Part shown: positions 18,584 through 49,982 of the stretch, piece after piece | How the letters are laid out: every line of letters starts with the position of its first letter | Numbering within the stretch: position 1 is the first letter of the stretch | Origin: an uncultured Candidatus Saccharibacteria bacterium | Lineage (GTDB): Bacteria; Patescibacteriota; Minisyncoccia; Phycocordibacterales; PALSA-1337 | Assembly (NCBI GenBank): GCA_964532285.1 | Contig: CAZHHB010000002.1 | Location: 36,684 to 100,683 of the forward strand | Direction: 5' to 3' | Length of the DNA stretch: 64,000 nt | Made by a program: the position numbers and the translations under genes | The notes under the pieces: model-generated | Seen by the model: only the letters and a program-made list of their open reading frames with translations | What the model was told of the DNA's origin: nothing | Databases searched by the model: none

Positions 18584-19472
18584 TGAGCATCGTCACGGCC
18601 TTGGTTACAATCGGCAAAATATCATTATAAAAATTCAATTCCAATATATCAACTAGCTTGAACCATTTTGCATCATCCAATCCAGGCTTTTTCGCCAGAT
18701 GCAGATCCCCAAAAGATGATTCGGCCAAATAATAATGTACTTGCTTTCTGATCTTGCCGAGTTCCGGATCATTGGCTATATATTCATTTGTACCGAGGTC
18801 GGCCTTGATAGTTACATCCAACCCTATTTCCTCTTTAACCTTACTCACTGTACCAGTAGTAGGTTCAACACCTTCAGCGATCTTGCCTTTGGATAATGTC
18901 CAATGTCCGAAAATATCGTGGACAAAAGCCATATACATCTCTTCGCCATTTTTAGCATATACGATTGCCCCACCTAGATGTTGGACTGGCATCTGTTCAT
19001 AAGGGACTTCTGCGATCTTTTTCTTTTTGGCTGGAGCGGCGTCTTTGCCTGGTTCACCGAGTTCTTTATAAACTGCCCCTAATACACCGTTGACGAACCT
19101 TCCCGAAGTCTCTCCACCAAAAGTTTTGGCGAGTTCTATAGCTTCGTTGATGGCGACTTTGGCAGGCACTTCATCGCGATCAGAAAACAGGAGTTCATAT
19201 AGACCGAGCCTGAGGACATTTCTGTCGACCGGAGAGATCTTGTCTATCGGCCAATCAGGTGCGGCTTTCTCAATAATTTTATTTAGATCATCTTGTTTGG
19301 CCAGAATACCCTTCATCAAGTCTGCCATAAAGGATACATCAGACATGCCCGGTGCGAATTCTTTTGCATTCCTAGCAACAATAGCGCCAATATCTTTGTC
19401 ATGATGACCACGAGCGTCCCATTCAAATAGGGATTGTAAGACGACTGAGCGTGATAGGTGTCTATTTGCCAT
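18573..19472 (-). CDS. nusB: NusB antitermination factor fused to a C-terminal Nudix-like hydrolase domain
   Basis: 299 aa. The N-terminal ~150 aa are NusB-like (LFEWDARG..., RLGLYELLF). A K/A-rich linker is followed by a Nudix-box-like segment GKIAEGVEPTTGTVSKVKEEIGL. Confidence 0.7.
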   Translation of the reverse strand: MANRHLSRSVVLQSLFEWDARGHHDKDIGAIVARNAKEFAPGMSDVSFMADLMKGILAKQDDLNKIIEKAAPDWPIDKISPVDRNVLRLGLYELLFSDRDEVPAKVAINEAIELAKTFGGETSGRFVNGVLGAVYKELGEPGKDAAPAKKKKIAEVPYEQMPVQHLGGAIVYAKNGEEMYMAFVHDIFGHWTLSKGKIAEGVEPTTGTVSKVKEEIGLDVTIKADLGTNEYIANDPELGKIRKQVHYYLAESSFGDLHLAKKPGLDDAKWFKLVDILELNFYNDILPIVTKAVTMLSEG

Positions 19473-20031: not shown

Positions 20032-20104
20032 CCGCCCATAGCTCAGCTGGTAGAGCAGATCCCTCTTAAGGATAAGGTCGTAGGTTCGATCCCTACTGGG
20101 CGGA
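20032..20104 (+). tRNA. tRNA-Lys (anticodon CUU)
   Basis: CCGCCCATAGCTCAGCTGGTAGAGCAGATCCCTCTTAAGGATAAGGTCGTAGGTTCGATCCCTACTGGGCGGA. Anticodon loop CTCTTAA; T-loop GGTTCGATCC. Confidence 0.85.
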
Positions 20105-20132
20105 CTCGCAAAGTTATAAAGTTATTTGACCC

Positions 20133-20214
20133 GCCGGGGTGGCGAAATTGGTAGACGCACTTGGCTTAGGACCAAGCGGAGTAATCCATGGAGGTTCGAG
20201 TCCTCTCCCCGGCA
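20133..20214 (+). tRNA. tRNA-Leu (anticodon UAG), long variable arm
   Basis: GCCGGGGTGGCGAAATTGGTAGACGCACTTGGCTTAGGACCAAGCGGAGTAATCCATGGAGGTTCGAGTCCTCTCCCCGGCA. Anticodon loop CTTAGGA. Confidence 0.85.
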
Positions 20215-20500
20215 CACATCTCGTATACCACTAGCAAGCCCCCTGCGGGGCTTGCGTCCAAGACTCGAACGGCGGAGCGATGTTTCGCGCACCAGCGCGA
20301 AACCGCGAGCCGGTGGCTAGCCCGAACGAGCGGGTAGCGAGTGAGAGGCGAAGCCGAGTCCTCTGTACCGCGCCTGTAAGGCGAGAGTCCTCTCCCCGGC
20401 ACTTCTACGCTCTTCACTCGCTACGCTCATTCAGAGCTACGAAGTGCAGGCACAATAGAATGTTTTTTATAAGATACCGCATAGATAACTATAGTAGTCA
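20215..20500. other. GC-rich (~65%) structured non-coding segment carrying an 18-bp direct repeat of the tRNA-Leu 3' end (att-like scar)
   Basis: gagtcctctccccggcac occurs at 20189-20206 (within the tRNA) and again at 20385-20402; gagtcctct also occurs at 20359. Several GC hairpins are present (agcaagcccc/ggggcttgc; tttcgcgc/gcgcgaaa). Confidence 0.5.
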
Positions 20501-20537
20501 ATATTGTTTTTTATTTTTGAAATGAGAAAATTATGGC

Positions 20538-21368
20538 ATGGAAAAAGAGAAAAAACATTTAGCTATATTTGAAAGTAAACAGATTCGCCGACACTGGGAT
20601 GATCAGTCGGAGAAGTGGTATTTCTCCGTGGTTGATGTAGTGGGTGTATTATCTGAAAGCACAGACCCGAGGAACTATTGGAAGGTCTTGAAAAACAGGT
20701 TAAATGCGGAAGGTAGTGAGTTGGTTACAAAATGTAACCAACTGAAAATGAAATCATCTGATGATAAGTATTATTTAACTGATGCCGCTGACACCGAAGT
20801 ATTATTACGCCTCATCCAATCAATTCCATCCCCCAACGCCGAACCATTCAAGCTATGGCTTGCCAAGGTCGGCTATGAAAGACTAGAAGAAACCGCTGAT
20901 CCAGAGCTTGCTATCAATCGTGCCCTGAAGACTTATTTGGCAAAGGGCTATTCACCAGCGTGGATAATGCAGAGGTTGAAGAGTATTGAAATTCGCAAGG
21001 AACTTACTGATGAATGGGAGAAGGCAGGGGTTAAAGAGGGTCTAGAATTTGCCATCCTTACAGATGAGATTACCAAAGCATGGACAGGCATGACTACCCG
21101 TGAATACAAAAATCTCAAAGACCTCAAAAAGGAGAATCTGCGTGACAATATGACCAATCTTGAGTTAGTTCTCAATATGTTGGCTGAGACCGCTACTACG
21201 GAGATTTCCAAAAAAGTGGAGCCGAAAGGGTTGGAACCGAGTAAGAAGGTTGCTAAGAAAGGAGGTCAAATTGCCGGAAATGCTCGACGACAAGTGGAAG
21301 CGGAAACTGGAAAACCTGTTATTACTGGTGATAATTGGGAGACTAGAAAGAACAAATCACTCAAATGA
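20538..21368 (+). CDS. Bro-N domain protein, DinD-like (DNA-damage-inducible protein D family)
   Basis: 276 aa. The N-terminal KWYFSVVDVVGVLSESTDPRNYWKVLKNRL is Bro-N-like. The C-terminal region resembles DinD/KilA-C-like antirepressor proteins. Confidence 0.5.
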   Translation: MEKEKKHLAIFESKQIRRHWDDQSEKWYFSVVDVVGVLSESTDPRNYWKVLKNRLNAEGSELVTKCNQLKMKSSDDKYYLTDAADTEVLLRLIQSIPSPNAEPFKLWLAKVGYERLEETADPELAINRALKTYLAKGYSPAWIMQRLKSIEIRKELTDEWEKAGVKEGLEFAILTDEITKAWTGMTTREYKNLKDLKKENLRDNMTNLELVLNMLAETATTEISKKVEPKGLEPSKKVAKKGGQIAGNARRQVEAETGKPVITGDNWETRKNKSLK

Positions 21369-21455
21369 ATATAACCAGGCTATCGAAGATATAATTAAAC
21401 TAATAAAAAAGGCGCACACAGTGAAGTGCGCGCCCTGTGATAAAGAACTTGGAAA

Positions 21456-22553
21456 CTAACCCTTGCCACCGTAACCGCCTGGCGATACCAGCTTAATCCC
21501 TTGGGAGATGATGTGGTACACACCCTCAAGGGTATTCGTAACGGTTGTCTTCGTCTGGGGATCCAGTAATGCGGGAACCTCGATCTTTTTGCCAGTCGCC
21601 TGGTTTTCGAGCACATACGAGGTAGCAGCTTGCCCACCAGAAGTGTATGTGTGTAGAACGACGTTCGTCGTCGGTTTGTCAAATGTGACAATACCCAACG
21701 GGATGTTGCCGTACTCATTCCCCTCACCATCCTTCCAAGTCCAGACAACCATCGTCAAGTCGCTCGTGTTCTTGAAGGAGACGAGGTCACTTGAGTTTTG
21801 CAACAAAACCCTGACCTCCACGGGCGTAAGTGTAACCGGAGAACCGTCCTTGAGTGAGATCGTCTCTTGAAAATACGACCACACATTATCACCGGCCGGC
21901 TTCCATCCCGAGATGGCTATCACCCCGTTGCCGGCGTATTGGGATTGGAAATAAAAACCGTCACTATCCGTCCTCAAGGACACTGGATATGGGTTATTAT
22001 TGTTGGAGTCGCGAACGATGAGTCGCACCCCTCTCAACTGTACGCCGTTGGGCACCGCAATCTTGACTTCCGATGATAGGTATAAACCCACCATCTCTGC
22101 CCAATCTGGCAGTAGCCACCGACCATACTTGTCTTGGTAAGGTTGTGATGTGCTACCGCCACTGAATAGTGGCTGTGGTTTGTTCCCCGACCAGCGAATC
22201 TGATTCCAGTTGTTTGTGCTGTACAGATCCATGCTGATGGAGAAGTAGTCCTTCGGCGAAGTAACCTGCAAAACCCAGCGTTCGTTGACCAGCAGTTCCA
22301 TGATCCCTTCAAGAGTTTTGATCTTGTCGTTGTATTCATAGAACCGCTCGTTGTACCCATTGTCAGCCGTATCGCTGCCACAGGTCACATTCACCGCAAC
22401 CCCCTGCACCTGTTTGAAGGCGTAGGAGATCAGGGCGGTCCGATTGGTAAGCATGGACAAGTCCATGTTCACAGCAGTCTGCGCTTGAGTTTGCACTGGC
22501 ATCCAAATGCCGAGGCACAGGAAACCGACGATTAGTGTGAGTATGTTTTTCAT
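21456..22553 (-). CDS. Secreted hypothetical protein (signal peptide), GC-rich
   Basis: 365 aa; signal peptide MKNILTLIVGFLCLGIWMPVQTQAQT. Elevated GC compared with core genes. Confidence 0.5.
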   Translation of the reverse strand: MKNILTLIVGFLCLGIWMPVQTQAQTAVNMDLSMLTNRTALISYAFKQVQGVAVNVTCGSDTADNGYNERFYEYNDKIKTLEGIMELLVNERWVLQVTSPKDYFSISMDLYSTNNWNQIRWSGNKPQPLFSGGSTSQPYQDKYGRWLLPDWAEMVGLYLSSEVKIAVPNGVQLRGVRLIVRDSNNNNPYPVSLRTDSDGFYFQSQYAGNGVIAISGWKPAGDNVWSYFQETISLKDGSPVTLTPVEVRVLLQNSSDLVSFKNTSDLTMVVWTWKDGEGNEYGNIPLGIVTFDKPTTNVVLHTYTSGGQAATSYVLENQATGKKIEVPALLDPQTKTTVTNTLEGVYHIISQGIKLVSPGGYGGKG

Positions 22554-22607
22554 CTATCGCTCTCTCTTTCTTTGTTTGTTTTTTTGGTTTTTGTTTGTTA
22601 CCGCAGA

Positions 22608-22874
22608 TTACTTCAGCGTGATTTTGGTCACGCGAACCGTGACGTGATTTGTGTCCACAGGCCGTTCGGCACGAACAGTGTTACTGGAGGAGTTCTGCCC
22701 CCGCGAGGGATTCTGCTGATTCCTCACAGTCTCATCCACCTTGGACGCACCGTAAATCAACATACCGACGAAGGCCAAGACGGCGACGATCGAAAAGGCA
22801 CAAATCACCCAGATCACACCCCTTGTCTTCTCTTCCCGTTTTTCCTGCTTCCTGACTGTATTAACCTTTTTCAT
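22608..22874 (-). CDS. Small membrane protein, hypothetical
   Basis: 88 aa; K/R-rich N-terminus then one TM (VIWVICAFSIVAVLAFVGMLIY). Confidence 0.35.
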   Translation of the reverse strand: MKKVNTVRKQEKREEKTRGVIWVICAFSIVAVLAFVGMLIYGASKVDETVRNQQNPSRGQNSSSNTVRAERPVDTNHVTVRVTKITLK

Positions 22875-23160
22875 ATTATTTTGCTTTCAAACTGCGTTTC
22901 TGTCGTTTTTTCTGTCTCCAAATGAAAAGTGGCCCGTATAGCCATATCCATTAACTGGCAAGAGTGTATCAGACTAGTTGGCAGATGTCAATACTTAACT
23001 TGACAAGAACAACTCATAATGCTAACATGCAACCAGTACGCACAGTCTGCTTGAACCTTCAAATGTTCGCTTTGCGGATATGAGATGGGGCGGATTGATA
23101 ACATACCTAGGAAACTAGGATCATAATAAATGGCGATAAGCCATTAGCAGAAAGAACAGT

Positions 23161-23838
23161 ATGAGCACACAAGTAGCAGGAACGGCAACGAGCACGGAAG
23201 GACCAACACTTCTCGTGCTTGAAGAGAAACAGCCGATGACCACCGAAGCCTACGACTGGATGATGAGTATCAACTCTCTTCCTGGGTGCGGACTCTCCCC
23301 AATTCGTTTCATTGGGTTGAAAAACATCGAAAGGCTCTCGGAAGCCCTCGGACACCAGATAACCCTTGAGGAGGCGAAGATACTCGTCCGGTTGGACGGT
23401 GACAAAATGAAGTGCGATGATACTGAGAGGGAGTTCCAACCAATCGCATACTGGCCGTACATCAACGCGGACATGGAGAAGGACCTCGCGTCCGGGAAAA
23501 CACTGGCTGAAATCTCCGTGCCCTTTGGCGGAGCCTTCTTCCTCGAAGGCAAACAGATCTTCGCCTTCTCCGGACCGGTTTACGACAAACTCGGGGCTAG
23601 CTGGATGAATGAAAGCCCGCTTGTCAAAGCGTCAAAAGAAGCCGGCTTCATCAGGAAACTCAAACGCCCGATCTGGGGGAAATGCTTCCAGGTGTTGGCG
23701 GACTATCTGTCTGACGAGGTGGAGAGGAAGAGGCGTCAGCAAGAAAGCCGGGACCGCATCAAAGACAAGTTCTCTGGGAAAAAGCGGGGGCTGAATAAAC
23801 TGAACAATGTTTTTGCCTCGCTGGAACTGGAGGATTAA
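23161..23838 (+). CDS. Hypothetical protein (GC-rich island gene)
   Basis: 225 aa complete ORF with a protein-like composition. The antisense ORFs in this region are R/W/C-rich, which suggests they are artefacts. Confidence 0.4.
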   Translation: MSTQVAGTATSTEGPTLLVLEEKQPMTTEAYDWMMSINSLPGCGLSPIRFIGLKNIERLSEALGHQITLEEAKILVRLDGDKMKCDDTEREFQPIAYWPYINADMEKDLASGKTLAEISVPFGGAFFLEGKQIFAFSGPVYDKLGASWMNESPLVKASKEAGFIRKLKRPIWGKCFQVLADYLSDEVERKRRQQESRDRIKDKFSGKKRGLNKLNNVFASLELED

Positions 23839-24034
23839 CACCCGAGATCAAACAAGATCAAAGAGCCCGCATGTCTACATGCGGGCTCCCTTTTTATATG
23901 TAATATGGAACAAGCCTTGACATCACTATTGTAATGATATATAATGCTCGTCAGTGATTAAAGTTGTTTTGACAACAAATAGAAACGAAAACAAAGACCA
24001 CGAGCGATCGTAGGTCACAACCACAAGGAAACAA

Positions 24035-25534
24035 ATGAAAAGCAACCCAGCGGGATTGCCCGCAGTGAAAGGGTTCAGTCTGAACCATCCGTTTCAGGTG
24101 ACTTGGGGAGAAATTCCCAATACCGAATACATCACGACCGTGATCATCCCTCCCGATGGGAAGAGGATGAAGGGCACCAAGACCAAGAATAATGGTCTTG
24201 ATATCAGGGTCCTGAAAAACATCCCCGGGGAACATATCCTCGAGGTGTTGGCTACTACTCCTGACGGCTCCAGTAAGGGGCCGGCTGGGCGAGTCAGCTT
24301 CAAGATCGTGAATGAAAAAGTGGAGGAGTTCAAGGAACTGCCTCCCGAGGAAGAAGATGAGGACGAGGATCCAAACCAAATCCCCAACTTGTCGGGCGGA
24401 ACGGGATCGACCGCCGGAACTGGAACGGGCACTTCGCCCGCGCCGAATCCGACGCCTGGGTCCGGAGCTGGTCCGGTGAATCGTCCCGCCGGTCCCGTGA
24501 GTCAGCCGACTTCGGGAACCGCGAGTCACGACCTCAGTCTGGCCTTGAACCATCTGGGTGAGGGAATCAAAACCCTGGTCTCTCAGGGTGTGGCAAATAC
24601 AAACTCGCTCCGCACCTTGGCGGAAAGCAACAAGGGATTCGCCGAGGGATTCAGTTCCCTCAGTAGCGAGAATGGACCGCTGGCACAGATGACGCAGCTC
24701 CACGGCAAAACAGCGCTGGCGTTGGATGGGATTCTGATTAAACTCAACCAACTGCCGCCCGCCGCCATTACTACGCCCACCGGTACTGTGGCGACGACCG
24801 GAGTTCAGCAAAAGCCGCAGAAGACCAAAAAGTCCGGAAACGGGAAGTGGTGGCTGCCGGCTGTTGCAATCGTCGCAATGGTTGCGCTGGTTGCATTCGT
24901 TGCCATGAAATCCATGAATAACCTGACCCAAACTCCCCCTCCCGCCCAGTCGATTGAAACCGATAAAGCGGTGATGGATGCCCGAAGAATGGCAGTGGAG
25001 GCCAACAGTAAGGCCAACGAGATGCAGCAGCAGGTGGAAGCCATTCACCGCGAGTTGAACAAACCCGCGCCGGCTCCCATCGCACAGCCGATAACGGTGA
25101 ATGTTGTTGTGACGAACAACAATATCAACAACAACTGTTGTGGGGAAAGGCAAAAGGCGGAAACGCCTGCTGTCCAACCCCCGCCAGTTCCGGCTCCGAC
25201 TGCCCCACCCCAACCGGTGGCACAGGTTCCACAGCAAAAGGGTTATTGGTACCAAGAAGTGGTGCCCGTAGCTCAGACGGTTCAGACTTATGTGGAACCA
25301 CAACAAGTTGTGATCCAGCAGCCTGGATTCAATGGGTATTACTATCAACCGTACGGGCCATCCTGCGGAACTTCCGTTGGATTCCGTGTCGGTATCGGTG
25401 GTGGCTACGGCGGTGGTGGTGGAGGCTATTGTCCTCCGCCGGCACGCGGGGGGTTCTACTCCCCGACACAGTTGAGTCAACCATGTCCACCACAAGGTGG
25501 AGGTGGTCGCGGTGGCCATGGTGGTCGCCGATAA
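24035..25534 (+). CDS. Pro/Gly/Thr-rich low-complexity membrane protein, hypothetical
   Basis: 499 aa with a central TM (WWLPAVAIVAMVALVAFVAM), PAPxP repeats and a Gly-rich C-terminus. The antisense 536-aa ORF has R/W/C-rich composition typical of a GC-rich artefact. Confidence 0.45.
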   Translation: MKSNPAGLPAVKGFSLNHPFQVTWGEIPNTEYITTVIIPPDGKRMKGTKTKNNGLDIRVLKNIPGEHILEVLATTPDGSSKGPAGRVSFKIVNEKVEEFKELPPEEEDEDEDPNQIPNLSGGTGSTAGTGTGTSPAPNPTPGSGAGPVNRPAGPVSQPTSGTASHDLSLALNHLGEGIKTLVSQGVANTNSLRTLAESNKGFAEGFSSLSSENGPLAQMTQLHGKTALALDGILIKLNQLPPAAITTPTGTVATTGVQQKPQKTKKSGNGKWWLPAVAIVAMVALVAFVAMKSMNNLTQTPPPAQSIETDKAVMDARRMAVEANSKANEMQQQVEAIHRELNKPAPAPIAQPITVNVVVTNNNINNNCCGERQKAETPAVQPPPVPAPTAPPQPVAQVPQQKGYWYQEVVPVAQTVQTYVEPQQVVIQQPGFNGYYYQPYGPSCGTSVGFRVGIGGGYGGGGGGYCPPPARGGFYSPTQLSQPCPPQGGGGRGGHGGRR

Positions 25535-25561
25535 ACAATAGTTCCTTGTTCCAACACACAT

Positions 25562-25600
25562 CCCTCGCGCAGACTACAGAGTCTGCCGAGGGTTGTTTTT
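25562..25600 (+). terminator. Terminator-like hairpin gcagact..agtctgc followed by a T-run
   Basis: gcagactacagagtctgc is followed by cgagggttgttttttg. Confidence 0.5.
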
Positions 25601-25809
25601 TGTACTAAAAACTATCACAACACATAAATAAATTTTTGAATACTTGTGCAGAAACTAAAATCTTTGATAAAATTTAAGTATCAGTAGGTAGATTTGCTCA
25701 CGTCAAAGACGAAGGAACTACAATTAAATAATCCGAGGGCGCGCAGAGCCATCACAATCCACTTTTATGAATAAGTGGAAATTTTTTATTAAATTAAATA
25801 AACACGATC

Positions 25810-26799
25810 ATGAATATTCAAAACATAAAACAAAATGGGAATGTCGTCCTTTACACTGACAAACACGGTAATGTTGAATTACGCGCGGACTTAGAAAAAG
25901 ATACGATTTGGGCGACACAGGATCAAATCATGCGTTTGTTCGAGATTGATCAGTCTGTCGTATCACGTCATATAAATAATATAATCAAAGACGGTGAAAT
26001 TGATGGGAAAAGCAATATGCAAAAAATGCATAGTGCTAATTCAGATCGTCCGATAACCCTTTATTCACTTGATATTATATTGTCCGTTGGTTATAGAACC
26101 AATTCAAAGAATGCTATATCTTTCAGAAGATGGGCAACGGGCGTTCTCCGTGACTATCTCACTAAAGGTTACGCTATAAACCAACACAAACTAGCTGAGA
26201 CTCGAGAAAAGTTTACTGACTTACAAAAGGCGGTTGCTCTCATAGAATCGAAGTCACATCGTGAATCATTGAAAGGTAAAGCTGGAGATATCCTCGAGCT
26301 TCTGTCTGCATATTCGAAAACTCTCACTATTCTCGAACAATACGATAACGAGACTCTTACTGATATTAAGGGCAAAAGAAGTGTCTACAAACTAACCTAT
26401 GAAGATAGTTTAGGATTGATCGATGATATAGAAATGGAACTGTCTGTGAAGGGCGAAGCTAATGAACTCTTTGCTGTAGAACGCGGTGGCATGTTTGAAG
26501 GAGTTGTTAAATCTGTCTACCAGACATTTGGCGGCAAAGAGCTCTATCCAACGATAGAAGATAAGGCTGCCAACCTCTTATATTTCGTTATAAAAGATCA
26601 TCCTTTTTCTGATGGCAACAAGCGCATCGGCTCAATGGTGTTCTTGTATTTCCTGCATCGCAACAGATACCTCATCAGACCAAATGGTGAACGAAAGATA
26701 AATGATACCGCAATGGCTGCATTGGCACTCCTCGTGGCCGAGAGTGATCCTAAAGAGAAAGAAACCATAGTCAAATTAACCAAGAACCTAGTACACTGA
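25810..26799 (+). CDS. RhuM-family N-domain fused to Fic/Doc-family domain protein
   Basis: 329 aa. The N-terminus (VLYTDKHGNVELRADLEKDTIWATQDQIMRLFEIDQSVVSRHINNI) resembles RhuM/COG3943. The C-terminus has the Fic/Doc motif HPFSDGNKRIG. Confidence 0.7.
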   Translation: MNIQNIKQNGNVVLYTDKHGNVELRADLEKDTIWATQDQIMRLFEIDQSVVSRHINNIIKDGEIDGKSNMQKMHSANSDRPITLYSLDIILSVGYRTNSKNAISFRRWATGVLRDYLTKGYAINQHKLAETREKFTDLQKAVALIESKSHRESLKGKAGDILELLSAYSKTLTILEQYDNETLTDIKGKRSVYKLTYEDSLGLIDDIEMELSVKGEANELFAVERGGMFEGVVKSVYQTFGGKELYPTIEDKAANLLYFVIKDHPFSDGNKRIGSMVFLYFLHRNRYLIRPNGERKINDTAMAALALLVAESDPKEKETIVKLTKNLVH

Positions 26800-26852
26800 T
26801 TAAACCTATCATCTAAGCCATTCTAAGCCATATTCTCATTATTACATTTCCC

Positions 26853-26881
26853 TTGACATCCACCTCCAAAAATGATACAAT
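26853..26881 (+). promoter_or_regulatory. Sigma70-like promoter (TTGACA, 17-nt spacer, TACAAT)
   Basis: ttgaca at 26853-26858, 17-nt spacer, tacaat at 26876-26881, upstream of the SPFH-like gene. Confidence 0.4.
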
Positions 26882-27009
26882 ACGGGACAGTTAAGTCAGC
26901 AGTGTGATATTCGTGTGAGTGTCCCTGCGTTGACAATTTGAATAGAAAAAACGACAAAAACAATACTTCCCTACAAACGGGAGGTTACAAAATCGGAGGA
27001 AAGAGAGTT

Positions 27010-28041
27010 ATGAGTAAAGAACACGAATCAACACCAAACAAAGAAAGAAGGGGTGAATATCTCTTGGTAGCAATACTGGAGATCGTCATTATTGGGTTGG
27101 TATTGGGCTGGATAGTGAAATTCATACTGAACGAAAGGTATGAAATAGCGACCAGCACCATTTACATCTCGAGCATGATGGTGTGGATCTCTGTAATAGG
27201 TTTTACAGGACTTCACAGGAGGTTCTTCACCTATGTACCAGAAAATTCTGGAGCCGTGATTGTAAACCAACTCCGAACATACGAGGAGCCCAAGAAAGAA
27301 GAAGACCGCACGAAGCTGATGCCGACAAAATCACTTCGCGAAGTTGGTCCTGGTCTCCAAGGTCTTCTCCTATGGGAAAAAGTCGGATGGGTAATAGACC
27401 TCGGAAAACAGATCACCATCAAGAAAGAGGTTACAGCTTATTCAAAAGATAAGATTGAGCTCAAGCTTGATTGGCAAGTGATTCTCACGGCATTACGTGG
27501 ATACTTAGTCAATTTGGTACGACATGACGGTGACACTATAGCGTTATTCTTTGAAGGTGCTTGTCAGGCAAAATTAATTGAACTGATAAGTCATGAATAC
27601 GCCCAGGATGTACCGGCTGAAGCGGGGGCTGAAGCGATTCAGAGTCTATCAGAAAGACTTGTGATCATAAAGGAAGAATTTAATAACTTCCTTGGTGGTC
27701 CAAATGACACAGATGATATTGAGAAACAGTTTGGGACATTCACCAATAGTCCTCAAATCATCAATATTAGGTGGCCGAAAGGATTCACCGAATCAGCCGA
27801 GGCGTTGAGGGTAAACATGAACAATGCCGCAGCGATGACGGCACTAACGAGAGACAACCCTGGACTGAAACCAAACCAGGCCCTCATTGCAGTCTTAACT
27901 GCACAAGGAAAATCGCCTGATGGACTGATTGACTTAAACATCAGCGGTCTGGAAAACCTACACACACTAAACATGGCTGGCAATCCAGCCAATTTCCTAA
28001 AGAAAACTGGAAACAAGAAGAAAGGAGACGGTAATGAGTAA
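27010..28041 (+). CDS. SPFH/band-7-like membrane protein
   Basis: Start at MSKEHE with SD ggaggaaagag; the ORF could extend to 26938. N-terminal TM is followed by GAVIVNQLRTYEEP...GPGLQGL...VIDLGKQITIKKEVTAYSKDKIELKLDWQV, consistent with an SPFH core. Confidence 0.45.
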   Translation: MSKEHESTPNKERRGEYLLVAILEIVIIGLVLGWIVKFILNERYEIATSTIYISSMMVWISVIGFTGLHRRFFTYVPENSGAVIVNQLRTYEEPKKEEDRTKLMPTKSLREVGPGLQGLLLWEKVGWVIDLGKQITIKKEVTAYSKDKIELKLDWQVILTALRGYLVNLVRHDGDTIALFFEGACQAKLIELISHEYAQDVPAEAGAEAIQSLSERLVIIKEEFNNFLGGPNDTDDIEKQFGTFTNSPQIINIRWPKGFTESAEALRVNMNNAAAMTALTRDNPGLKPNQALIAVLTAQGKSPDGLIDLNISGLENLHTLNMAGNPANFLKKTGNKKKGDGNE

Positions 28042-28330
28042 AAAGACTGTGGCTTTCAGCCACGAAGATAGTCCTGGCGAAACAAAGCCTCCAGCTGACA
28101 AACCGGGGAGCCGTACAGACAACACACCAAAAGTTCTTGCAATCATATTGCTTGTCGCCGGAGGTCTGTTGTTGCTGATGATAAATCGGGATAGGGCAAC
28201 AAGCACCGGCAAACCCAAGGGAAATGCTCCGCTTGTCACCTCCTCCCCTCCCCTCATCCAAAGCGGTATCGTTGATATCGTGGTCGGTGAGTGGACAAAG
28301 CCAATTGTGTGCGCCCAGGGGGGGGGGTAA
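28034..28330 (+). CDS. Small membrane protein; ORF ends immediately after a G10 tract (possible frameshifted NfeD-like partner)
   Basis: 98 aa; TM (VLAIILLVAGGLLLLMI). Reading through the G10 tract at 28318-28327 would fuse it to frame 28339-28580. Confidence 0.35.
   Translation: MSKKTVAFSHEDSPGETKPPADKPGSRTDNTPKVLAIILLVAGGLLLLMINRDRATSTGKPKGNAPLVTSSPPLIQSGIVDIVVGEWTKPIVCAQGGG
28318..28327. repeat. Homopolymeric G10 tract
   Basis: cccaGGGGGGGGGGtaa joins two ORFs in different frames. Confidence 0.9.
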
Positions 28331-28607
28331 ACGCATCATGGCTGCGGTAATGACAGAGGGTGTCATGGTAGATGCCCTTCTTGATGGGACTCGGCCTTAT
28401 GTGATAGTGCCCAAAGGCTGGCCTGGGGCCAAACACTTGGAAATCACGAATGGTTTCAACGCCATTCAGCTCCAGGTACGAGCCGGGCAGACAAATAGGC
28501 TCGGTCAGCCGATCACAAGTGCGAAGGCGTCATGGGAAATAGTCCCCCGCAAAGACATTGTCGCTTCCGCTTGGAATTAGTTACTTGGAGCTCATCAGAG
28601 CTCACGC

Positions 28608-28678: not shown

Positions 28679-28978
28679 TCACAAAGCCTTAACTGTATTT
28701 GAGATGAGATATATTATTCCCCAAGCTGAGACCATGATGAATAAACCAAGCACGCCATACAATATCATCATCTTCCCTTTCGATCTGGCATCCTCATCGC
28801 CACCTTTTATGATCATCTGCAAAACTCCGTAAACAAAGACCACAACCGCTACACCGAACAGGAGTCCCAGGACTGGATAGACGATGTTTGAAATGATTGG
28901 ACTTAGAGTATTACCAAGAACCGTGGCATCTACTGCCGCATTAGCTTGCAGGATTGGCTCTGATAATAGAGAAAACAT
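28679..28978 (-). CDS. Small secreted two-TM protein, paralog 1 of 6 (VirB2/TrbC-pilin-like topology)
   Basis: 99 aa; hydrophobic N-terminus, two TM helices separated by the charged loop KGGDEDARSKGK. Confidence 0.45.
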   Translation of the reverse strand: MFSLLSEPILQANAAVDATVLGNTLSPIISNIVYPVLGLLFGVAVVVFVYGVLQMIIKGGDEDARSKGKMMILYGVLGLFIMVSAWGIIYLISNTVKAL

Positions 28979-28984
28979 TGATAA

Positions 28985-29380
28985 TTACTGAACGATAGGT
29001 ACTTGTCTGGCTGGTATACCATCTATCTGTTCATTATTCGTGAAGTTTGGAATCTTTTTGTCAGTTGGTTGTGTCCCAAATGTATTAGTCAAGATATTCA
29101 CCAAACCCCAGATAGATACAATGATGAATAGACCGACTATGCCCCAGAGGATATTCATACCGGCGGCTCCACGACCCTCTTCTCCCTTGCCCTTTATGAG
29201 ATACATCACAACATTCCATACGATGAATAGAACAGCGGCGGCGACTAAGATGTACACAATCGTACTACCAATACCCAGGATCTTGGTACTCAAGGAGTTG
29301 ACATCCACGACTCTGGCGGTTGTTTGAGCAAAAGCCATAGACGGAGCAATAGTTACGACAAAAGCAATGATTTTTTTCAT
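28985..29380 (-). CDS. Small secreted two-TM protein, paralog 2 of 6 (VirB2/TrbC-pilin-like)
   Basis: Signal peptide MKKIIAFVVTIAPSMAFAQTT; loop KGKGEEGRGAAG between two TMs. About 128 nt are identical to paralog 3. Confidence 0.5.
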   Translation of the reverse strand: MKKIIAFVVTIAPSMAFAQTTARVVDVNSLSTKILGIGSTIVYILVAAAVLFIVWNVVMYLIKGKGEEGRGAAGMNILWGIVGLFIIVSIWGLVNILTNTFGTQPTDKKIPNFTNNEQIDGIPARQVPIVQ

Positions 29381-29484
29381 ATTATTATATAAACTTATAA
29401 ATCTGATTAACACCTCTAATTATACCCCATAAGATAGAAAGTACGGCAAGAGTATCTGTGGATTAGTATTATACTCTGTAAGAT

Positions 29485-29901
29485 CTAATCTGGAGTCAGA
29501 GGACCCGAATTGTTACTGGTAAAATCAGTACTAGGGAAACGGTCTCTGGGAACATTATTATTTGTCCCAAATGTATTAGTCAAGATATTCACCAAACCCC
29601 AGATAGATACAATGATGAATAGACCGACTATGCCCCAGAGGATATTCATACCGGCGGCTCCACGACCCTCTTCTCCCTTGCCCTTGATAAGATAGAAGAC
29701 TACATTGTATACAATAAATACAACCGCCAAGACCACGAGAATATAGATGACAACATCGGCAATACCGATGAATTTCGTCTTTAAATCCTCGAGATTGTTG
29801 ATCTGCTTCAATGGGCCCTGAACTTGAGTCGTTGCCTGAGCAAATGAGATCAATGGTATAAAAACCAGAACGGACAATATCGCTAATAGTTTATTTTTCA
29901 T
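29485..29901 (-). CDS. Small secreted two-TM protein, paralog 3 of 6 (VirB2/TrbC-pilin-like)
   Basis: Start at MKNKLLAILSVLVFIPLISFAQATT. The C-terminal half is identical to paralog 2 (…KGKGEEGRGAAGMNILWGIVGLFIIVSIWGLVNILTNTFGT). Confidence 0.5.
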   Translation of the reverse strand: MKNKLLAILSVLVFIPLISFAQATTQVQGPLKQINNLEDLKTKFIGIADVVIYILVVLAVVFIVYNVVFYLIKGKGEEGRGAAGMNILWGIVGLFIIVSIWGLVNILTNTFGTNNNVPRDRFPSTDFTSNNSGPLTPD

Positions 29902-29918
29902 ACGGATGATTGTTATTA

Positions 29919-30284
29919 TTAATTTGGAAAAATATTCTTCAAATTCGCCCAACTACCTGGAGTATTAGGACCGAGATTAAATGTCGCGGTAACGATATTC
30001 ACTAGACCCCACATTGATAATATGACGAAGAATCCAATCAGACTCCACATCAGATACTTGCCAGCCTCAGTACGACCATCACCACCTTCATTCGGCATGA
30101 TGAAATATTTTACGATATAAAATACAAACATCAACACTGCCACACCCATAAGAAGTAGTAGAGCCTGATTCAAATAACCAGCGATAGATCCTATGAGATC
30201 GGATAATTTCTTGGTCGTAGCCGCAAAAGAAATGAGTGGAGATGCAAGCGTTATCGCGGGAATGATGTATTTTATTTTTTTCAT
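29919..30284 (-). CDS. Small secreted two-TM protein, paralog 4 of 6 (VirB2/TrbC-pilin-like)
   Basis: 121 aa; signal peptide MKKIKYIIPAITLASPLISFAATT; loop PNEGGDGRTEAG between TMs. Confidence 0.5.
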   Translation of the reverse strand: MKKIKYIIPAITLASPLISFAATTKKLSDLIGSIAGYLNQALLLLMGVAVLMFVFYIVKYFIMPNEGGDGRTEAGKYLMWSLIGFFVILSMWGLVNIVTATFNLGPNTPGSWANLKNIFPN

Positions 30285-30308
30285 ATAATAAATTGGTTAT
30301 CTATTTAT

Positions 30309-30788
30309 CTATCTTAAAGCATCTCTAGAGCCCTGCATAACTTGCGGACTGACTGTGCCGGTAGCTTCAATGGTATTTATAATAACTTCCACCATCACGC
30401 GTGCACCTATGACCACAGCCACACCTATGGCTAGCCACATAAGTCTCTTGTGCTGTTCCGCGATCTTGGCGGCATTACCTTGTGCTGCATACATGATGTA
30501 CATGAAGCCTACATAGATGAACATCAGTACCGCTATCAGGATGACGACATAACTGAATATCTCTACAGCACTCTTCACAAGACCACCAACAGAATCAACT
30601 TTCAATGGGTTCTGTAAAGTGAAGGTTTGTTGGCTATTCGTATTTCCGCCAATAGTTCCACCATTAGGAGTATTGCCCCCAATCGTACCCGGACCTTCTT
30701 CTATCGCAAAAACAGGACTTGCCATAGAAACCGAGACCGCAAGAACCATCACGATAGCTAAAATAGTTTTTTTATTGAAATATTTCAT
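30309..30788 (-). CDS. Small secreted two-TM protein, paralog 5 of 6 (VirB2/TrbC-pilin-like)
   Basis: 159 aa; signal peptide ...SMASPVFAIEE, Gly-rich GTIGGNT repeats, two C-terminal TMs. Confidence 0.45.
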   Translation of the reverse strand: MKYFNKKTILAIVMVLAVSVSMASPVFAIEEGPGTIGGNTPNGGTIGGNTNSQQTFTLQNPLKVDSVGGLVKSAVEIFSYVVILIAVLMFIYVGFMYIMYAAQGNAAKIAEQHKRLMWLAIGVAVVIGARVMVEVIINTIEATGTVSPQVMQGSRDALR

Positions 30789-30796
30789 ATTTTTAT

Positions 30797-31315
30797 TTAC
30801 TTACCCAGAAGCGCTCCGAATCCCGATTTGCCTGTAAGCCAACTCAATACTTGGAAAACGATGAGCCAAGCTGACAGCATTATTATAAACCCTATGAGCA
30901 CTTTTTTGAAAACACTGTGGGCCTGAGTCAACTTGCCTGGATCTCCAGAGCCCGTGATGTATAGGAATCCCGCGTATGAGAAACCGAGTATAGCTACAAG
31001 AACACCAACGACAATAGCGATATTTATCAGATGTTGAACCTGCATCATCAGACCGTTGAAGTCACATGGAATGTAATCGTCTTTAAGTGGATATTTGTAT
31101 GAACCATTTAATTTCTCTGATGAGAATTCCTTGGTTACTGGATTATAATGCCCCGCACCATCTGGCCCATCGCAAACTACCAACTTGAAGCCTTTGTCGC
31201 TAATATCCGTCGTCGGCAACTGATCATTCAATGTCCTTGTTGTCTGTGCGTAAACATTTACGACTGGTGTCATCAATACAAACACACCTAGAACAGAAAT
31301 AAATATTCTCTGCAT
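30797..31315 (-). CDS. Small secreted two-TM protein, paralog 6 of 6 (VirB2/TrbC-pilin-like)
   Basis: Start at MQRIFISVLGVFVLMTPVVNVYAQTT; two C-terminal TMs with loop GSGDPGKLTQ. The ORF could extend to 31393. Confidence 0.45.
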   Translation of the reverse strand: MQRIFISVLGVFVLMTPVVNVYAQTTRTLNDQLPTTDISDKGFKLVVCDGPDGAGHYNPVTKEFSSEKLNGSYKYPLKDDYIPCDFNGLMMQVQHLINIAIVVGVLVAILGFSYAGFLYITGSGDPGKLTQAHSVFKKVLIGFIIMLSAWLIVFQVLSWLTGKSGFGALLGK

Positions 31316-31394
31316 CAAAACTTTATAACTTTCTATCCTTCGAGACTGAGAGTCTCTCAGGACCTGATCGGCTTTATAACTTTTTAACTTCATT

Positions 31395-32708
31395 TTATTG
31401 TCCGGCTTGTCTTAGAATAATATCATACTGCGCACCTGTATCTTGAAGCGCTTGATCTGCTGTCTTTTGTCCACTCGTTACAGAATCAACCATGGAACTC
31501 AAAAGATTCCTGGATTGTATCGGGTCAATATCGAGCCAGGTCTTGGCGATCAAAGCCGCCTGATTGAATATGGTTATGTAAGGATCGCTTGAACCCTGGG
31601 CGATTATATCATTGCGAACTGATGGTATATACATATCACTAGACAATGTCGCCAGATTTTGCGGTGAAGTTAAGATGGCGATAACCTGATATGAGGTATT
31701 CAGATTTTGTGAAGCGCGCACCAGAGAGAAGCCGTACATCTTGCCGTAAGCGGCACTCTTGTCACTACTGGTGCGGGATTGTGGCAGTGGAGCTACATCA
31801 AAGTTTAGGTTCTGGTTCTTGTTACGAATATCGGATAGTTCGGAAGCAAAACCGAAATATGTTGCCAAAGTTCCAGAGAGGAAAGCCGTTTTGTCATTTT
31901 GCATTCCCCTATTCCAAGAATAATTGACACTCAACGGATTGACAGCATCACTGAAGAATTTCAATGCCGGCGAAATGTTCACCGAGTCAGAGGTTTTTAG
32001 GGTGGACTGCATAAAGCCTTGATTATTCATAACTGTCACCCTGTTCCCTTTTTGCAAAAACAAAGAACCGAGCAATTCTCTGGCATTGGTTATGTTGCTA
32101 AAGTTCCCCATTGCCAAAGCTGTCTTCCTCAAATTGCCATTCTGGTCTTTGGAAGTAAGTTTCTGAATCAACCCCATATTTTGAGATGTGCCGGTGAATT
32201 CATCCCAGTACTTCGGGTAGCTGGCAATACCGGCGGCATTGAATGTATCTCTATTCCAATACATCACCAACGGATCAACTGTAAATGGTACCGCCAATAA
32301 CCCATCCGATGACATATACACATCCGCCTCATCTATATACGACTCCATGAATGTCCTCTGCGGCAAAGCAGAATAAGGTATAAACGTGAGTTTGTTTTGC
32401 TGTGGCAAGATCATATCAGCAGTGATGAGCAGGACATCCGGACCTTGTCCGAGAGCTAGAGCATTGACGAAATCGCGAGAGAGAGTGTCGGGCTTTTTCT
32501 CTACATAATTGACCGTAATTTGCTGTGCCAAAGAACTGTTGATCGTAGAAACATACTGTGTGAAAGTATTCGTTGGGAATGTCCCCCAAATAGTTATGGC
32601 TGGTAGATTCGGGTTGGAATTGCTACCTCTATATAATGCAAAACCCATCACACCGCCGATGATGCATAAAACGAATATTCCCAGGGTTATGATTTGAAAT
32701 TTTGACAT
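31395..32708 (-). CDS. Extracellular solute-binding protein family 1-like (membrane-anchored)
   Basis: 437 aa; N-terminal anchor, then an SBP-like core (DVLLITADMIL, LAVPFTVDPLVMYWNRDTF). No permease or ATPase gene is adjacent. Confidence 0.4.
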   Translation of the reverse strand: MSKFQIITLGIFVLCIIGGVMGFALYRGSNSNPNLPAITIWGTFPTNTFTQYVSTINSSLAQQITVNYVEKKPDTLSRDFVNALALGQGPDVLLITADMILPQQNKLTFIPYSALPQRTFMESYIDEADVYMSSDGLLAVPFTVDPLVMYWNRDTFNAAGIASYPKYWDEFTGTSQNMGLIQKLTSKDQNGNLRKTALAMGNFSNITNARELLGSLFLQKGNRVTVMNNQGFMQSTLKTSDSVNISPALKFFSDAVNPLSVNYSWNRGMQNDKTAFLSGTLATYFGFASELSDIRNKNQNLNFDVAPLPQSRTSSDKSAAYGKMYGFSLVRASQNLNTSYQVIAILTSPQNLATLSSDMYIPSVRNDIIAQGSSDPYITIFNQAALIAKTWLDIDPIQSRNLLSSMVDSVTSGQKTADQALQDTGAQYDIILRQAGQ

Positions 32709-32723
32709 TTTATTGTTTGCTTG

Positions 32724-32744
32724 CCAAGATCCGATCTTGGTATA
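32724..32744. repeat. 21-bp palindromic repeat unit (ccaagatccgatcttggtata), family P
   Basis: Consensus unit; one arm reverse-complements the other around a central C. Confidence 0.75.
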
Positions 32745-33260
32745 TTATCTCATAAAAACCATCCCGTAGTGATGATCGCCTGCGTCGAATGACTGATCGA
32801 GCTTGAAACCTGATTTCTCAAAGAGAACTCTTGCCGTTGTCGCCGGAACTGTATGTTTCGGACTAAGATTGGAGACTTCACTCCAATCGATCAGGAGAAC
32901 CTTGCCGTCTGGTTTCAATATCCTCTTGATTTCTAGGACGAAACTGTCGGGTTTTTCTATCTGCGAAAGGACATTGGAAGCAATGACCCTGTCAGCGATC
33001 CCTTCACGGAGTTTCGTTCCACCAATCTTCTCGGCATTACCCCAGATCACTTCTATATTACGGAGTCCTTGATTGGCTCCAGCAGAGCGAAGACGCTCCA
33101 GAAGATCCTTCTGGACATCGACAGCATATACACGACCGCTTGTACCGACCCTCTTGGCAGTTTCAAAAGAATAGAAGCCAGAACCAGCCCCTAGGTCAAC
33201 CACTCTCATACCATCATTGATACCCAATTTGGCTAGATTTGAGGATGGATCAGAAAACAT
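32745..33260 (-). CDS. Class I SAM-dependent methyltransferase
   Basis: 171 aa; motif I VVDLGAGSGFYS; acidic residue after beta-2 (AVDV). Confidence 0.75.
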   Translation of the reverse strand: MFSDPSSNLAKLGINDGMRVVDLGAGSGFYSFETAKRVGTSGRVYAVDVQKDLLERLRSAGANQGLRNIEVIWGNAEKIGGTKLREGIADRVIASNVLSQIEKPDSFVLEIKRILKPDGKVLLIDWSEVSNLSPKHTVPATTARVLFEKSGFKLDQSFDAGDHHYGMVFMR

Positions 33261-39109: not shown

Positions 39110-39703
39110 TCATCCGGCGTTAAATACACTCATAGCCTTTTCTCTGCCCTCTTTGATCAACATCACGATTGCTTCCGTGACGCTTTTTGATACCTTCTTC
39201 AGGATCTTCAATTCTTCATCTTTGAATTTGCCGAGAATGAACTTCTCTATCTTGTCATCGCCATGCGGAGTCTTTGCTACACCCTTGGCGTTAGCTGGGG
39301 AGGTACCGATCCTAATCCTCACGAAAGCCTCTGTCTTTACAGCTTTGATAATAGACTCCACGCCATTGTGTCCGCCTGAACTGCGGTTGTAAGACAACTT
39401 CATACGACCAAGTGGCAAATTGAAATCATCATAAATAACTATCAATTTCCCGGCGGCTTTGACATTTTTGACCAAGAGACCAACAGACTTGCCGGAATTA
39501 TTCATAAATGTTTCTGGCGCAATCATCACTACTTTCTCTTGACCGATCTTCCCTTCTGCAAATTGCGCATTCAGCTTTTTATTAAATGAAAATTCCCCAG
39601 CGTATTCTTTACGGACAGCTTCAAGAACCATTCTACCAGTATTGTGGCGTGTACTATCATATTCCGCTCCGGGATTTCCCAATCCGACTATTATATAAGG
39701 CAT
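39110..39703 (-). CDS. pth: Peptidyl-tRNA hydrolase
   Basis: 197 aa; MPYIIVGLGNPGAEYDSTRHNTG signature. Confidence 0.9.
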   Translation of the reverse strand: MPYIIVGLGNPGAEYDSTRHNTGRMVLEAVRKEYAGEFSFNKKLNAQFAEGKIGQEKVVMIAPETFMNNSGKSVGLLVKNVKAAGKLIVIYDDFNLPLGRMKLSYNRSSGGHNGVESIIKAVKTEAFVRIRIGTSPANAKGVAKTPHGDDKIEKFILGKFKDEELKILKKVSKSVTEAIVMLIKEGREKAMSVFNAG

Positions 39704-39762
39704 ATTGGAAGTATAAGTGTAAATTTGGAGAAAAACAACTTTCGCGCTATAATGGCTCCACT

Positions 39763-40389
39763 ATGGATCCCGTAAGCGATAAACACAGTAATCTTTGGAA
39801 AGAACTACTGGAATGGGTAAAGGTCATCGTTATCGCTCTTATAATCTCTCTCCCTATCAGATATTTCATCGCTGAACCATTCATCGTGAATGGTGCTTCA
39901 ATGGACCCAGCTTTTTCTACTAGCCAATTCCTCATTGTAGACCGTGTCACATACCGCTTCAATGAACCAAAGCGCGGAGATGTTATCGTCTTCAAATACC
40001 CGAATGATCCAAGTACTTATTACATAAAACGCATTATAGGATTGCCAGGAGAAACATTAAATATAAAAAATGGCAAGGTAATACTTGGAAAATATGATTC
40101 AGAATGCAACACTATTGAGAATCGCTCATCGGCTTATTCAGATTGCATCATTCAAACTTTGGATGAACCGTATGTAAGTAGTACTCACGCTTCCAATGAC
40201 ACATTGACCGTCACTCTGAAATCTACTGAATATTTCGTAATGGGAGACAACCGTGCTCAAAGTTCAGACTCGCGCATTTGGGGACCTCTCGACAAAAGCT
40301 TCATCATCGGTCGCCCGATTGTGAGACTTTATCCATTTGACACATTATCATTATTCCCCGGTGAGCATCATGCGTATACACAAAAATAA
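39763..40389 (+). CDS. lepB: Signal peptidase I (S26)
   Basis: Start at MDPVSDKH; TM, then the catalytic Ser box NGASMDP and a K in the GDNR..SDSR box. Confidence 0.8.
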   Translation: MDPVSDKHSNLWKELLEWVKVIVIALIISLPIRYFIAEPFIVNGASMDPAFSTSQFLIVDRVTYRFNEPKRGDVIVFKYPNDPSTYYIKRIIGLPGETLNIKNGKVILGKYDSECNTIENRSSAYSDCIIQTLDEPYVSSTHASNDTLTVTLKSTEYFVMGDNRAQSSDSRIWGPLDKSFIIGRPIVRLYPFDTLSLFPGEHHAYTQK

Positions 40390-47423: not shown

Positions 47424-47595
47424 TTATTATTTCTATATTTCTTAAGTGCGTGCTATATGAATATTGAATGAAACCAGCCAGCAAAAAAGAAAGGAGCGTT
47501 GCGTAAATCAAAGATTCTATCAAAGTGAAGCCGTTACACGGTAACTTGATTGATATTTTGGGCTTAATAAGTAATTTCATAAACAACGGGAGCAT
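47398..47595 (-). CDS. pilA: Type IV prepilin (short)
   Basis: 65 aa; canonical class III signal ...NG|FTLIESLIYATLLSFLLAG. Confidence 0.6.
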   Translation of the reverse strand: MLPLFMKLLIKPKISIKLPCNGFTLIESLIYATLLSFLLAGFIQYSYSTHLRNIEIINDIQDIQN

Positions 47596-49970: not shown

Positions 49971-49982
49971 ATTGGTTTGACA

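Follow-up and report, generated by a model that had tools for sequence, protein, structure and literature searches.

The analysed window, a 64,000-nt stretch of contig CAZHHB010000002.1 (assembly GCA_964532285.1) from an uncultured bacterium, carries six tandem genes for small VirB2-like proteins of the family PF18895, placed directly behind a gene for a membrane-anchored solute-binding protein (SBP). These proteins are probably specialised, non-interchangeable subunits used with a monoderm-type type IV secretion system (T4SS), and their genes form the downstream part of a methyltransferase-SBP-pilin chromosomal module of Taylorbacteria-like Paceibacteria. As six tandem PF18895 genes, the array is one of the VirB2-like arrays defined for Patescibacteria, and taken alone it is ordinary and already described. 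The fixed operon with position-specific orthologs appears to be a variant for which we found no description; a literature search of incomplete coverage, and hence weak evidence of novelty, returned no paper combining Patescibacteria, VirB2 and a solute-binding protein.

Patescibacteria represent a large share of uncultivated bacterial diversity. Growth on a host depends on the T4SS and the pilin array in the sole patescibacterial species tested. The presence of five or six distinct subunits in a fixed order beside one sugar-type SBP suggests that the paralogs are specialised parts of one structure and not spare or variable copies. The operon also nominates the SBP as a specific partner of the pilins, and hence a ligand class.

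Conservation of the operon in related genomes

A relative of the SBP is encoded in at least 371 loci of species-representative genomes, and the best 80 of these were fetched for comparison. Open reading frames (ORFs) were called in the fetched loci, and a hidden Markov model built from the six window proteins was iterated to convergence at 393 ORFs. All 63 Paceibacteria/Taylorbacteria loci with at least 3 kb of downstream sequence contain an SBP ortholog (37-68% identity) followed by 3-7 pilin-like genes on the same strand, a recurrence that sets the arrangement apart from chance. Five genes is the modal array size (38 loci), and six genes are found in 17 loci. A methyltransferase ortholog lies directly upstream of the SBP gene in 79 of 84 loci, and gyrA is found upstream in 55, with flanks farther out not conserved. 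The linkage between SBP and pilins outlasts loss of the gyrA neighbourhood, and the downstream flanks turn over, even the most widespread gene family there being limited to about 25 loci. The same gene order was obtained for five metagenome contigs with independent gene calls and precomputed Pfam annotation. The named sources of the SBP homologs are Paceibacterota, Parcubacteria, Patescibacteria or Taylorbacteria.

Position-specific orthology of the pilin genes

Pilin positions are numbered here from 0, on the SBP side, to 5, the last gene. Of the 329 pilins in 62 complete arrays, 316 have a closer match in a different genome than among the paralogs beside them. The window pilins share 50-70% identity with same-position genes elsewhere and 20-40% with their own-array paralogs; measured against the first paralog, identity within the window array is 16-33%, and a single pair reaches 56.5% through gene conversion. 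When each gene is labelled by its nearest window paralog, the arrays are collinear, with the pattern 01245 in 24 loci, 012345 in six, and close variants of these in addition. Orthologs of position 3 were found in loci L003, L012, L016 and L033. Every position has its own conserved motifs, and position 0 carries an extra, putatively extracellular N-terminal segment of ~70 aa with two conserved cysteines in a CDGP...C motif. Every copy is full length and has a start of its own.

The paralogs are old and position-specific, and their positional orthology together with the conserved gene order argues against both an antigenic-variation cassette and recent amplification. The initial annotation of this DNA had likened the proteins to antigenically variable surface-filament subunits; this comparison fails on the cross-genome affinity of 316 of the 329 pilins and on the conserved order. 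Paralogs that are mutually closest, lineage-specific amplification and silent or partial copies, the marks of an antigenic cassette, do not characterise these arrays.

Identity to orthologs averages 28-43% in the segments before the first transmembrane (TM) helix, TM1, versus 51-61% in the cores. Between the window and its five nearest relatives (L003, L012, L013, L015 and L016), identity is 82-85% for GyrA, 70-78% for the methyltransferase, 59-61% for the SBP and 38-70% for the pilins. The pilins and the SBP thus evolve fast and at similar rates, as surface proteins do, yet they retain stable orthologs.

Gene conversion between positions 3 and 4

The genes at positions 3 and 4 share an exact tract of 123 nt (Table 1) that is embedded in 165 nt at 93% identity, with a sharp drop in identity outside. 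An identical stretch had been noted initially between these genes, there counted as paralogs 2 and 3, with a length of about 128 nt at 29073-29200 and 29565-29692; the stretch exists, and its extent is corrected here. Support for a true repeat comes from two independent short-read contigs, which derive from two sequencing runs, are 100% identical to the window and both stop at 29656, within the tract. Strain variation was considered for these contigs on account of their seemingly different pilin lengths and was rejected, as the sequences are identical to the window and the start-codon calls alone differ.

Positions 3 and 4 own separate orthologs, and in a close relative that has both positions they share no exact run longer than 18 nt. 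On these grounds the tract is a recent gene conversion between two old paralogs, covering the end of TM1, the loop and the second TM helix (TM2). The initial proposal of very recent duplication or gene conversion is retained in its second part only, the paralogs being old and their same-position orthologs 54-68% identical. Identical runs of at least 40 nt between paralogs occur in only five of the 62 arrays. Near-identical adjacent pilins are found at positions 3 and 4 of loci L053 and L050, with 99% and 97% amino acid identity and identical runs of 331 nt and 111 nt, respectively. Recent duplications or extensive conversions therefore do occur occasionally in this operon.

Family membership and predicted topology

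All six window proteins exceed the gathering cut-off of PF18895 (T4SS_pilin, 26.6 bits) with scores of 31-49 bits, and their membership of this family is firm. Their initial description as VirB2/TrbC-pilin-like is supported by this result and by the position-1 orthogroup, in which 21 of 22 proteins match PF04956 (TrbC/VirB2, cut-off 27.9 bits) at E<=1e-3, with a best E of 5e-11. The position-1 protein of the window scores 26.3 bits against PF04956 (E 9e-6), just below the cut-off, and the Pfam scan gave no PF04956 match for the other five window pilins. Alignment with hhalign of the position-1 group to eight annotated MPF_T VirB2/TrbC proteins drawn from conjugative plasmids gave E 3.4e-4 and a probability of 38%, with 48 columns in register across TM1, loop and TM2. 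Homology between the position-1 and position-2 groups is clear (hhalign probability 98.6%), and the position-2 group has no detectable similarity to genuine VirB2 (probability 0.6%). Homology to classical VirB2, carried by one of the six positions, is probable.

A profile search of the PDB with the position-2 alignment gave nothing significant, with the pKM101 pilin TraM at E 0.49, and a tblastn search of 72,556 plasmids with the most TrbC-like paralog gave no match. The search of PHROGs with all six pilins and of PADLOC with five returned no holin, other annotated PHROG or defence family. Comparison of folds, suggested initially as a check, does not discriminate, as Foldseek against the PDB returned only generic helical hairpins at E >0.4.

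A hydropathy scan identified two strong hydrophobic segments in all six proteins and an additional N-terminal one in five. In each protein a short charged loop parts the two hydrophobic helices, and the loops quoted in the initial annotation were found in the sequences. The AlphaFold2 model of the 121-aa pilin, built from a 59-sequence alignment (mean predicted local distance difference test score, pLDDT, 75), comprises a helix at residues 4-22 followed by a hairpin of helices 27-62 and 69-101. By heuristic inspection, five of the six proteins have an A-x-A-type leader with a basic n-region and a hydrophobic core (cut marked by ^: ..SFA^QAT, ..SFA^ATT, ..AFA^QTT, ..VFA^IEE and ..VYA^QTT). The leader of the 99-aa protein, judged in the same way, is MFSLLSEPILQANA^AVD only, 14 residues with a short core and no basic residue. 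The initial assignment of a cleavable signal peptide to every protein is thus upheld for five of the six, the exception being this non-canonical leader. The same short leader is present in the last-position genes of more than 40 other genomes. Among last-position pilins (L005-L084), a leader of ~10-14 residues with a very short hydrophobic core and the ending A-[Q/H/N]-A^A is conserved.

Gene coordinates and products

The minus strand at 28679-33260 holds eight tightly packed genes for the methyltransferase, the SBP and six small proteins (Table 1; positions refer to the whole window). The six small ORFs lie back to back at 28679-31393, 3' of the SBP gene, as initially described. In order of increasing coordinate, the longest ORFs encode 99, 142, 155, 121, 159 and 198 aa. 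An internal ATG that opens a signal-peptide-like N-terminus shortens three of them, to 131 aa (start at 29380), 138 aa (29901) and 172 aa (31315), and a separate gene call likewise gives 172 aa for the position-0 pilin. The likely products in Table 1 follow from the hydropathy scan and start-codon inspection. With the revised starts the products span 99-172 aa, in approximate agreement with the 99-173 aa given initially, and the intergenic gaps are 6-104 nt. Promoter and terminator scans were uninformative, with counts equal to those in shuffled sequence.

Table 1. Genes of the methyltransferase-SBP-pilin operon and associated features of the window
Feature	Position	Strand	Remarks
Class I S-adenosylmethionine-dependent methyltransferase, 171 aa, first gene of the conserved module	32745-33260	-	Matches Methyltransf_31/11/25
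Membrane-anchored MalE-like SBP, 437 aa, no adjacent ATP-binding cassette (ABC) partner	31395-32708	-	SBP_bac_8, SBP_bac_1
Pilin position 0, 172 aa	30797-31315 (longest ORF to 31393)	-	PF18895 32.8 bits; position-0 genes elsewhere 48-59% identical
Pilin position 1, 159 aa, most TrbC/VirB2-like member	30309-30788	-	PF18895 31.4 bits
Pilin position 2, 121 aa	29919-30284	-	PF18895 35.3 bits; position-2 orthologs 53-62% identical
Pilin position 3, 138 aa	29485-29901 (longest ORF to 29952)	-	PF18895 35.4 bits; position present in a subset of arrays only
Pilin position 4, 131 aa	28985-29380 (longest ORF to 29413)	-	PF18895 41.7 bits; position-4 orthologs 58-68% identical
Pilin position 5, last gene, 99 aa, short 14-residue leader	28679-28978	-	PF18895 48.6 bits; last-position orthologs 78-109 aa, 54-70% identical
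Gene-conversion tract, copy in position-4 gene (end of TM1, loop, TM2)	29072-29194		123 nt identical to 29563-29685
Gene-conversion tract, copy in position-3 gene	29563-29685		123 nt identical to 29072-29194
Convergent membrane protein of unknown family, 367 aa, semi-conserved neighbour, possibly outside the system	26938-28041	+	No Pfam, PHROG or PADLOC match

The solute-binding protein

The SBP matches the Pfam families SBP_bac_8 (E 5e-14, 53.2 bits) and SBP_bac_1 (E 1e-12, 49.2 bits), both above the cut-off. Its profile retrieves sugar- and oligosaccharide-binding proteins from the PDB (best match 4r9f, MBP1, at 1.8e-15), and its AlphaFold2 model, of moderate confidence (pLDDT 67), is matched by Foldseek to maltose-binding protein at E about 1e-18. 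Homologs number 2179 at E<1e-5, the best 120 of which are 56-68% identical. The protein has one N-terminal TM helix, with no lipobox and no evident cleavage site behind the helix. Among 76 orthologs this helix is conserved like the globular part (mean column conservation 0.65 vs 0.58), and the anchor residues F4, Q5, F12, G19, F23 and A24 are conserved at >=90%. Such conservation of the anchor may point to a specific contact in the membrane.

The scan of the window ORFs detected neither an ABC ATPase nor an ABC permease, consistent with the initial report of an orphan membrane-anchored SBP directly upstream of the pilin genes. Within 10 kb in the 80 related loci, only six ORFs carry both a Walker A motif and LSGGQ, and these are at scattered positions. 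Taken with the linkage in 63 of 63 loci, this distribution indicates that the SBP is consistently an orphan and consistently coupled to the pilins.

Comparison with known systems

One of the closest described counterparts is found in Southlakia epibionticum ML1 (Saccharimonadia), in which six tandem PF18895 genes, SEML1_0014-0019, lie beside VirB4 and VirB6 genes and are essential by transposon sequencing (Wang 2023, PMC10633639). Both arrays consist of six tandem chromosomal genes for proteins of ~100-185 aa, all in PF18895 and some in PF04956, divergent in sequence and with one predicted fold. The Southlakia array is essential and lies inside a T4SS cluster without an SBP. Around the window array no T4SS gene is detectable within 28 kb, and its partners are an SBP and a methyltransferase.

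A survey of 3,035 Patescibacteria genomes with PF18895 and PF04956 (Quinonero-Coronel 2025, PMC12102498) provides the broader context. It reports VirB2-like pilins in 1,948 VirB4-positive assemblies, near virB4 in only 1,135, and 441 arrays of 2-11 genes in 383 assemblies, with a within-array identity of 25% on average and 54% at most. The arrays occur mainly in Microgenomatia and Saccharimonadia, and their variation was suggested to serve host-range adaptation (PMC12102498); a 2025 review gives the same picture (PMC12857230). The window array resembles the surveyed ones in its tandem PF18895/PF04956 genes and low within-array identity, and differs in its SBP partner and positional orthology, neither of which is mentioned in the passages of the survey considered.

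Several other systems share individual features with the array. VirB2 of the Agrobacterium Ti plasmid and TrbC of RP4 have a leader and two hydrophobic helices separated by a short loop, with which the position-1 proteins align in register. The classical systems, however, are diderm and use a single major pilin encoded beside virB1, virB3 and virB4, and the window has several pilins without these neighbours. The Mbov_0395 family of Mycoplasma integrative and conjugative elements (NF045849, cut-off 40 bits) likewise comprises small two-helix proteins, belonging to a T4SS of wall-less or monoderm type; each of the six window proteins matches it (E 8e-8 to 2e-4), with scores of 21-32 bits that are all below the cut-off. 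In Mycoplasma, unlike in the window, there is only one copy, and a mobile element carries it. Tandem chromosomal VirB2 paralogs are also found in Bartonella and Anaplasma phagocytophilum (as cited in PMC12102498). Those arrays are read as antigenic-variation or host-range tools of animal pathogens, in contrast to the stable orthologous positions of the window paralogs.

A parallel case of an SBP-fold protein that is encoded with a monoderm conjugation or T4SS system and lacks its own permease is provided by PrgZ and TraC, OppA-like binding proteins on enterococcal conjugative plasmids. PrgZ is an SBP_bac_5-type receptor for a peptide pheromone; it supplies the Opp permease of the host and acts as a regulator of transfer. 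The window SBP differs from the peptide-type PrgZ in being of the MalE sugar type and in having no evident regulatory circuit.

Proposed mechanism and alternative explanations

In the mechanism that we propose, five of the subunits would be exported through Sec and cleaved after A-x-A, and the sixth would insert with its short leader only. Each subunit is predicted to form a helical hairpin in the membrane, presumably with both ends outside and the charged loop inside. A VirB4-type machine whose genes lie elsewhere in the genome would, by analogy with the essential six-pilin array of Southlakia epibionticum, extract the subunits and build a surface pilus or conduit of mixed composition for host-cell contact. 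The co-conserved SBP would act at the same surface site, where it may bind a host-derived glycan or sugar. Two carriers of the operon, L067 (Taylorbacteria RIFCSPHIGHO2_12_FULL_45_16) and L036 (RIFCSPHIGHO2_02_FULL_44_12), are listed as VirB4-positive in Table S1 of the survey (PMC12102498). The same table lists L019, a genome with only 206 annotated coding sequences, as VirB4-negative.

Several observations weigh against an assignment of the array to a T4SS. The scanned ORFs of the window include no VirB4, VirD4, VirB6 or other T4SS component, confirming an absence noted initially for these three genes, and no T4SS gene was detected in ~8 kb past the left window end, where sugar-metabolism genes and a large fn3 protein are located, or in 5-10 kb on each side in five Pfam-annotated related contigs. 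A VirB2/TrbC gene setting beside VirB3, VirB4 and VirB6 was accordingly found neither in the window nor on these contigs. Among 23 draft Taylorbacteria in the part of Table S1 considered, 14 are VirB4-positive and nine are without detected VirB4 (PMC12102498). Sequence-level homology to genuine VirB2 is weak for most positions, and a fixed set of five or six subunits under purifying selection is unlike the classical conjugative pili with one major pilin. To our knowledge, filament formation has not been demonstrated for any PF18895 protein. Finally, a membrane-anchored SBP without a clear cleavage site would fit a partner in a membrane complex better than a pilus-tip adhesin.

It is possible, if doubtful, that the pilins function as proposed and that the SBP and methyltransferase are mere neighbours, with the SBP serving an ABC importer encoded elsewhere and the adjacency reflecting shared regulation or inherited order. 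The MalE-like fold and Pfam domains of the SBP are ordinary, the methyltransferase evolves like a housekeeping gene, and the upstream linkage of gyrA in 55 loci indicates that part of the synteny is simply inherited. Such an origin is difficult to reconcile with a linkage that holds in all 63 loci down to 37% SBP identity, through turnover of the downstream flanks and loss of gyrA, and with the lack of an ABC ATPase motif at a consistent position within 10 kb in the 80 loci. It also does not account for an SBP rate equal to that of the pilins and not of GyrA, or for a TM anchor as conserved as the globular part. The strict coupling, the missing nearby ABC partner, the similar rates and the conserved anchor are at the same time our reasons for keeping in view a quite improbable extension, in which the pilins and the anchored MalE-like SBP would form one T4SS-derived pilus or conduit device that captures or imports host sugars or glycans. 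If this is correct, a concrete function could be assigned to the essential, relaxase-less patescibacterial T4SS.

We consider it unlikely that, rather than serving as filament subunits, the five or six two-helix proteins constitute a fixed heteromeric membrane complex of 10-12 helices that acts with the SBP as an ATPase-independent uptake or sensing device. This would be new biology, and it agrees with the fixed set, order and number of subunits, with their position-specific conservation, with the coupling to an anchored SBP lacking an ABC partner and with the absence of nearby T4SS genes; weak DctQ-like matches in five of 22 position-1 proteins point the same way and are probably compositional, as weak matches of TM proteins often are. 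The six-gene array of the same family in S. epibionticum, inside a VirB4/VirB6 cluster and without an SBP, and the matches to TrbC/VirB2 profiles stand against such a complex, for which we know of no precedent. The reading built on the initial proposal, a recently amplified array of antigenically or phase-variable pilins that diversifies to evade or match hosts, is now very improbable. It would explain the lower conservation of the segments before TM1, the faster evolution of SBP and pilins relative to GyrA, the gene-conversion tract and the recent duplicates in a few arrays such as those of L053 and L050. It is, however, largely refuted by positional orthologs kept across more than 60 species-level genomes, and further opposed by the full length and own start of every copy, by the restriction of long identical paralog runs to five of 62 arrays, and by the two independent short-read contigs, which are 100% identical to the window wherever they cover it. 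Practically no credence is given to holin-like, bacteriocin, immunity or other small membrane proteins unrelated to secretion: the small size, two TM helices and charged loop would suit them, but the proteins match PF18895 and PF04956 and no holin or other annotated PHROG (six tested) or PADLOC defence family (five tested), and the locus is in a conserved housekeeping region of the chromosome.

Genomic setting and neighbouring genes

The window is an ordinary Patescibacterium chromosome segment that encodes MreB, MreC, two PBP2-type transpeptidases, a Mur ligase, LysRS, SMC and GyrA, together with S1, peptidyl-tRNA hydrolase, signal peptidase, FtsA, FtsZ, BipA and HisRS. The signal peptidase gene, of the S26 family (39586-40389), is ~7 kb from the operon, keeps its place in related contigs that reach that far, and is probably a housekeeping enzyme. 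Peptidases of this family also process and cyclise TrbC pilins in RP4. Type IV pilus genes at 47564-51092 comprise a PilT-like T2SSE ATPase (49983-51092), a PilC/T2SSF protein (48915-49970) and an adjacent 459-aa protein without a Pfam match; they represent a filament system separate from the VirB2-like array. Cumulative GC skew has its minimum at ~40-46 kb, and gene orientation flips from mostly minus to mostly plus near 36-37 kb, both of which are consistent with a replication origin near the array, although the window yielded no dnaA. According to the survey, some Patescibacteria have T4SS genes close to the origin (PMC12102498).

In 25 loci, homologs of the convergent 367-aa membrane protein closely follow the array on the opposite strand; where 5 kb or more of downstream sequence is available, the count is 21 of 53 loci. 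The protein was considered as a core component and excluded, being present in only about 40% of loci. On the plus strand at 28034-28580, overlapping ORFs of 98 aa and 118 aa in different frames jointly resemble a single convergent gene of ~135-180 aa in relatives, residues 105-181 of the L027 protein matching window 28326-28568, and the split may reflect a frameshift or sequencing error.

Between the NusB/NUDIX genes (18573-19472) and the array lies a variable island, 20032-28600, in which relatives carry different genes. It includes tRNA-Lys and tRNA-Leu (20032-20215), a Bro-N protein (20538-21368), a secreted 365-aa protein, a G/P/A/T-rich 499-aa TM protein (24035-25534) and a RhuM/Fic protein (25810-26799), has a GC content of 0.47-0.52 vs about 0.43 elsewhere, and may be an integrated element beside tRNAs. 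At 23951-25561 ORFs are open on both strands, 536 aa on the minus and 499 aa on the plus strand; the low-complexity plus-strand product with its TM helix looks real and the minus-strand ORF looks like a by-product of high local GC. A tRNA-Asn with anticodon ATT called by ARAGORN inside this GC-rich ORF (25398-25473) was not confirmed by Rfam and is probably a false positive. Elsewhere, the minus strand at 57740-62221 holds a 1493-aa ORF without a Pfam match at E<=1e-3, and just past the left window end a protein with fn3 and PG_binding domains (L097) is encoded, at least 1569 aa in length.

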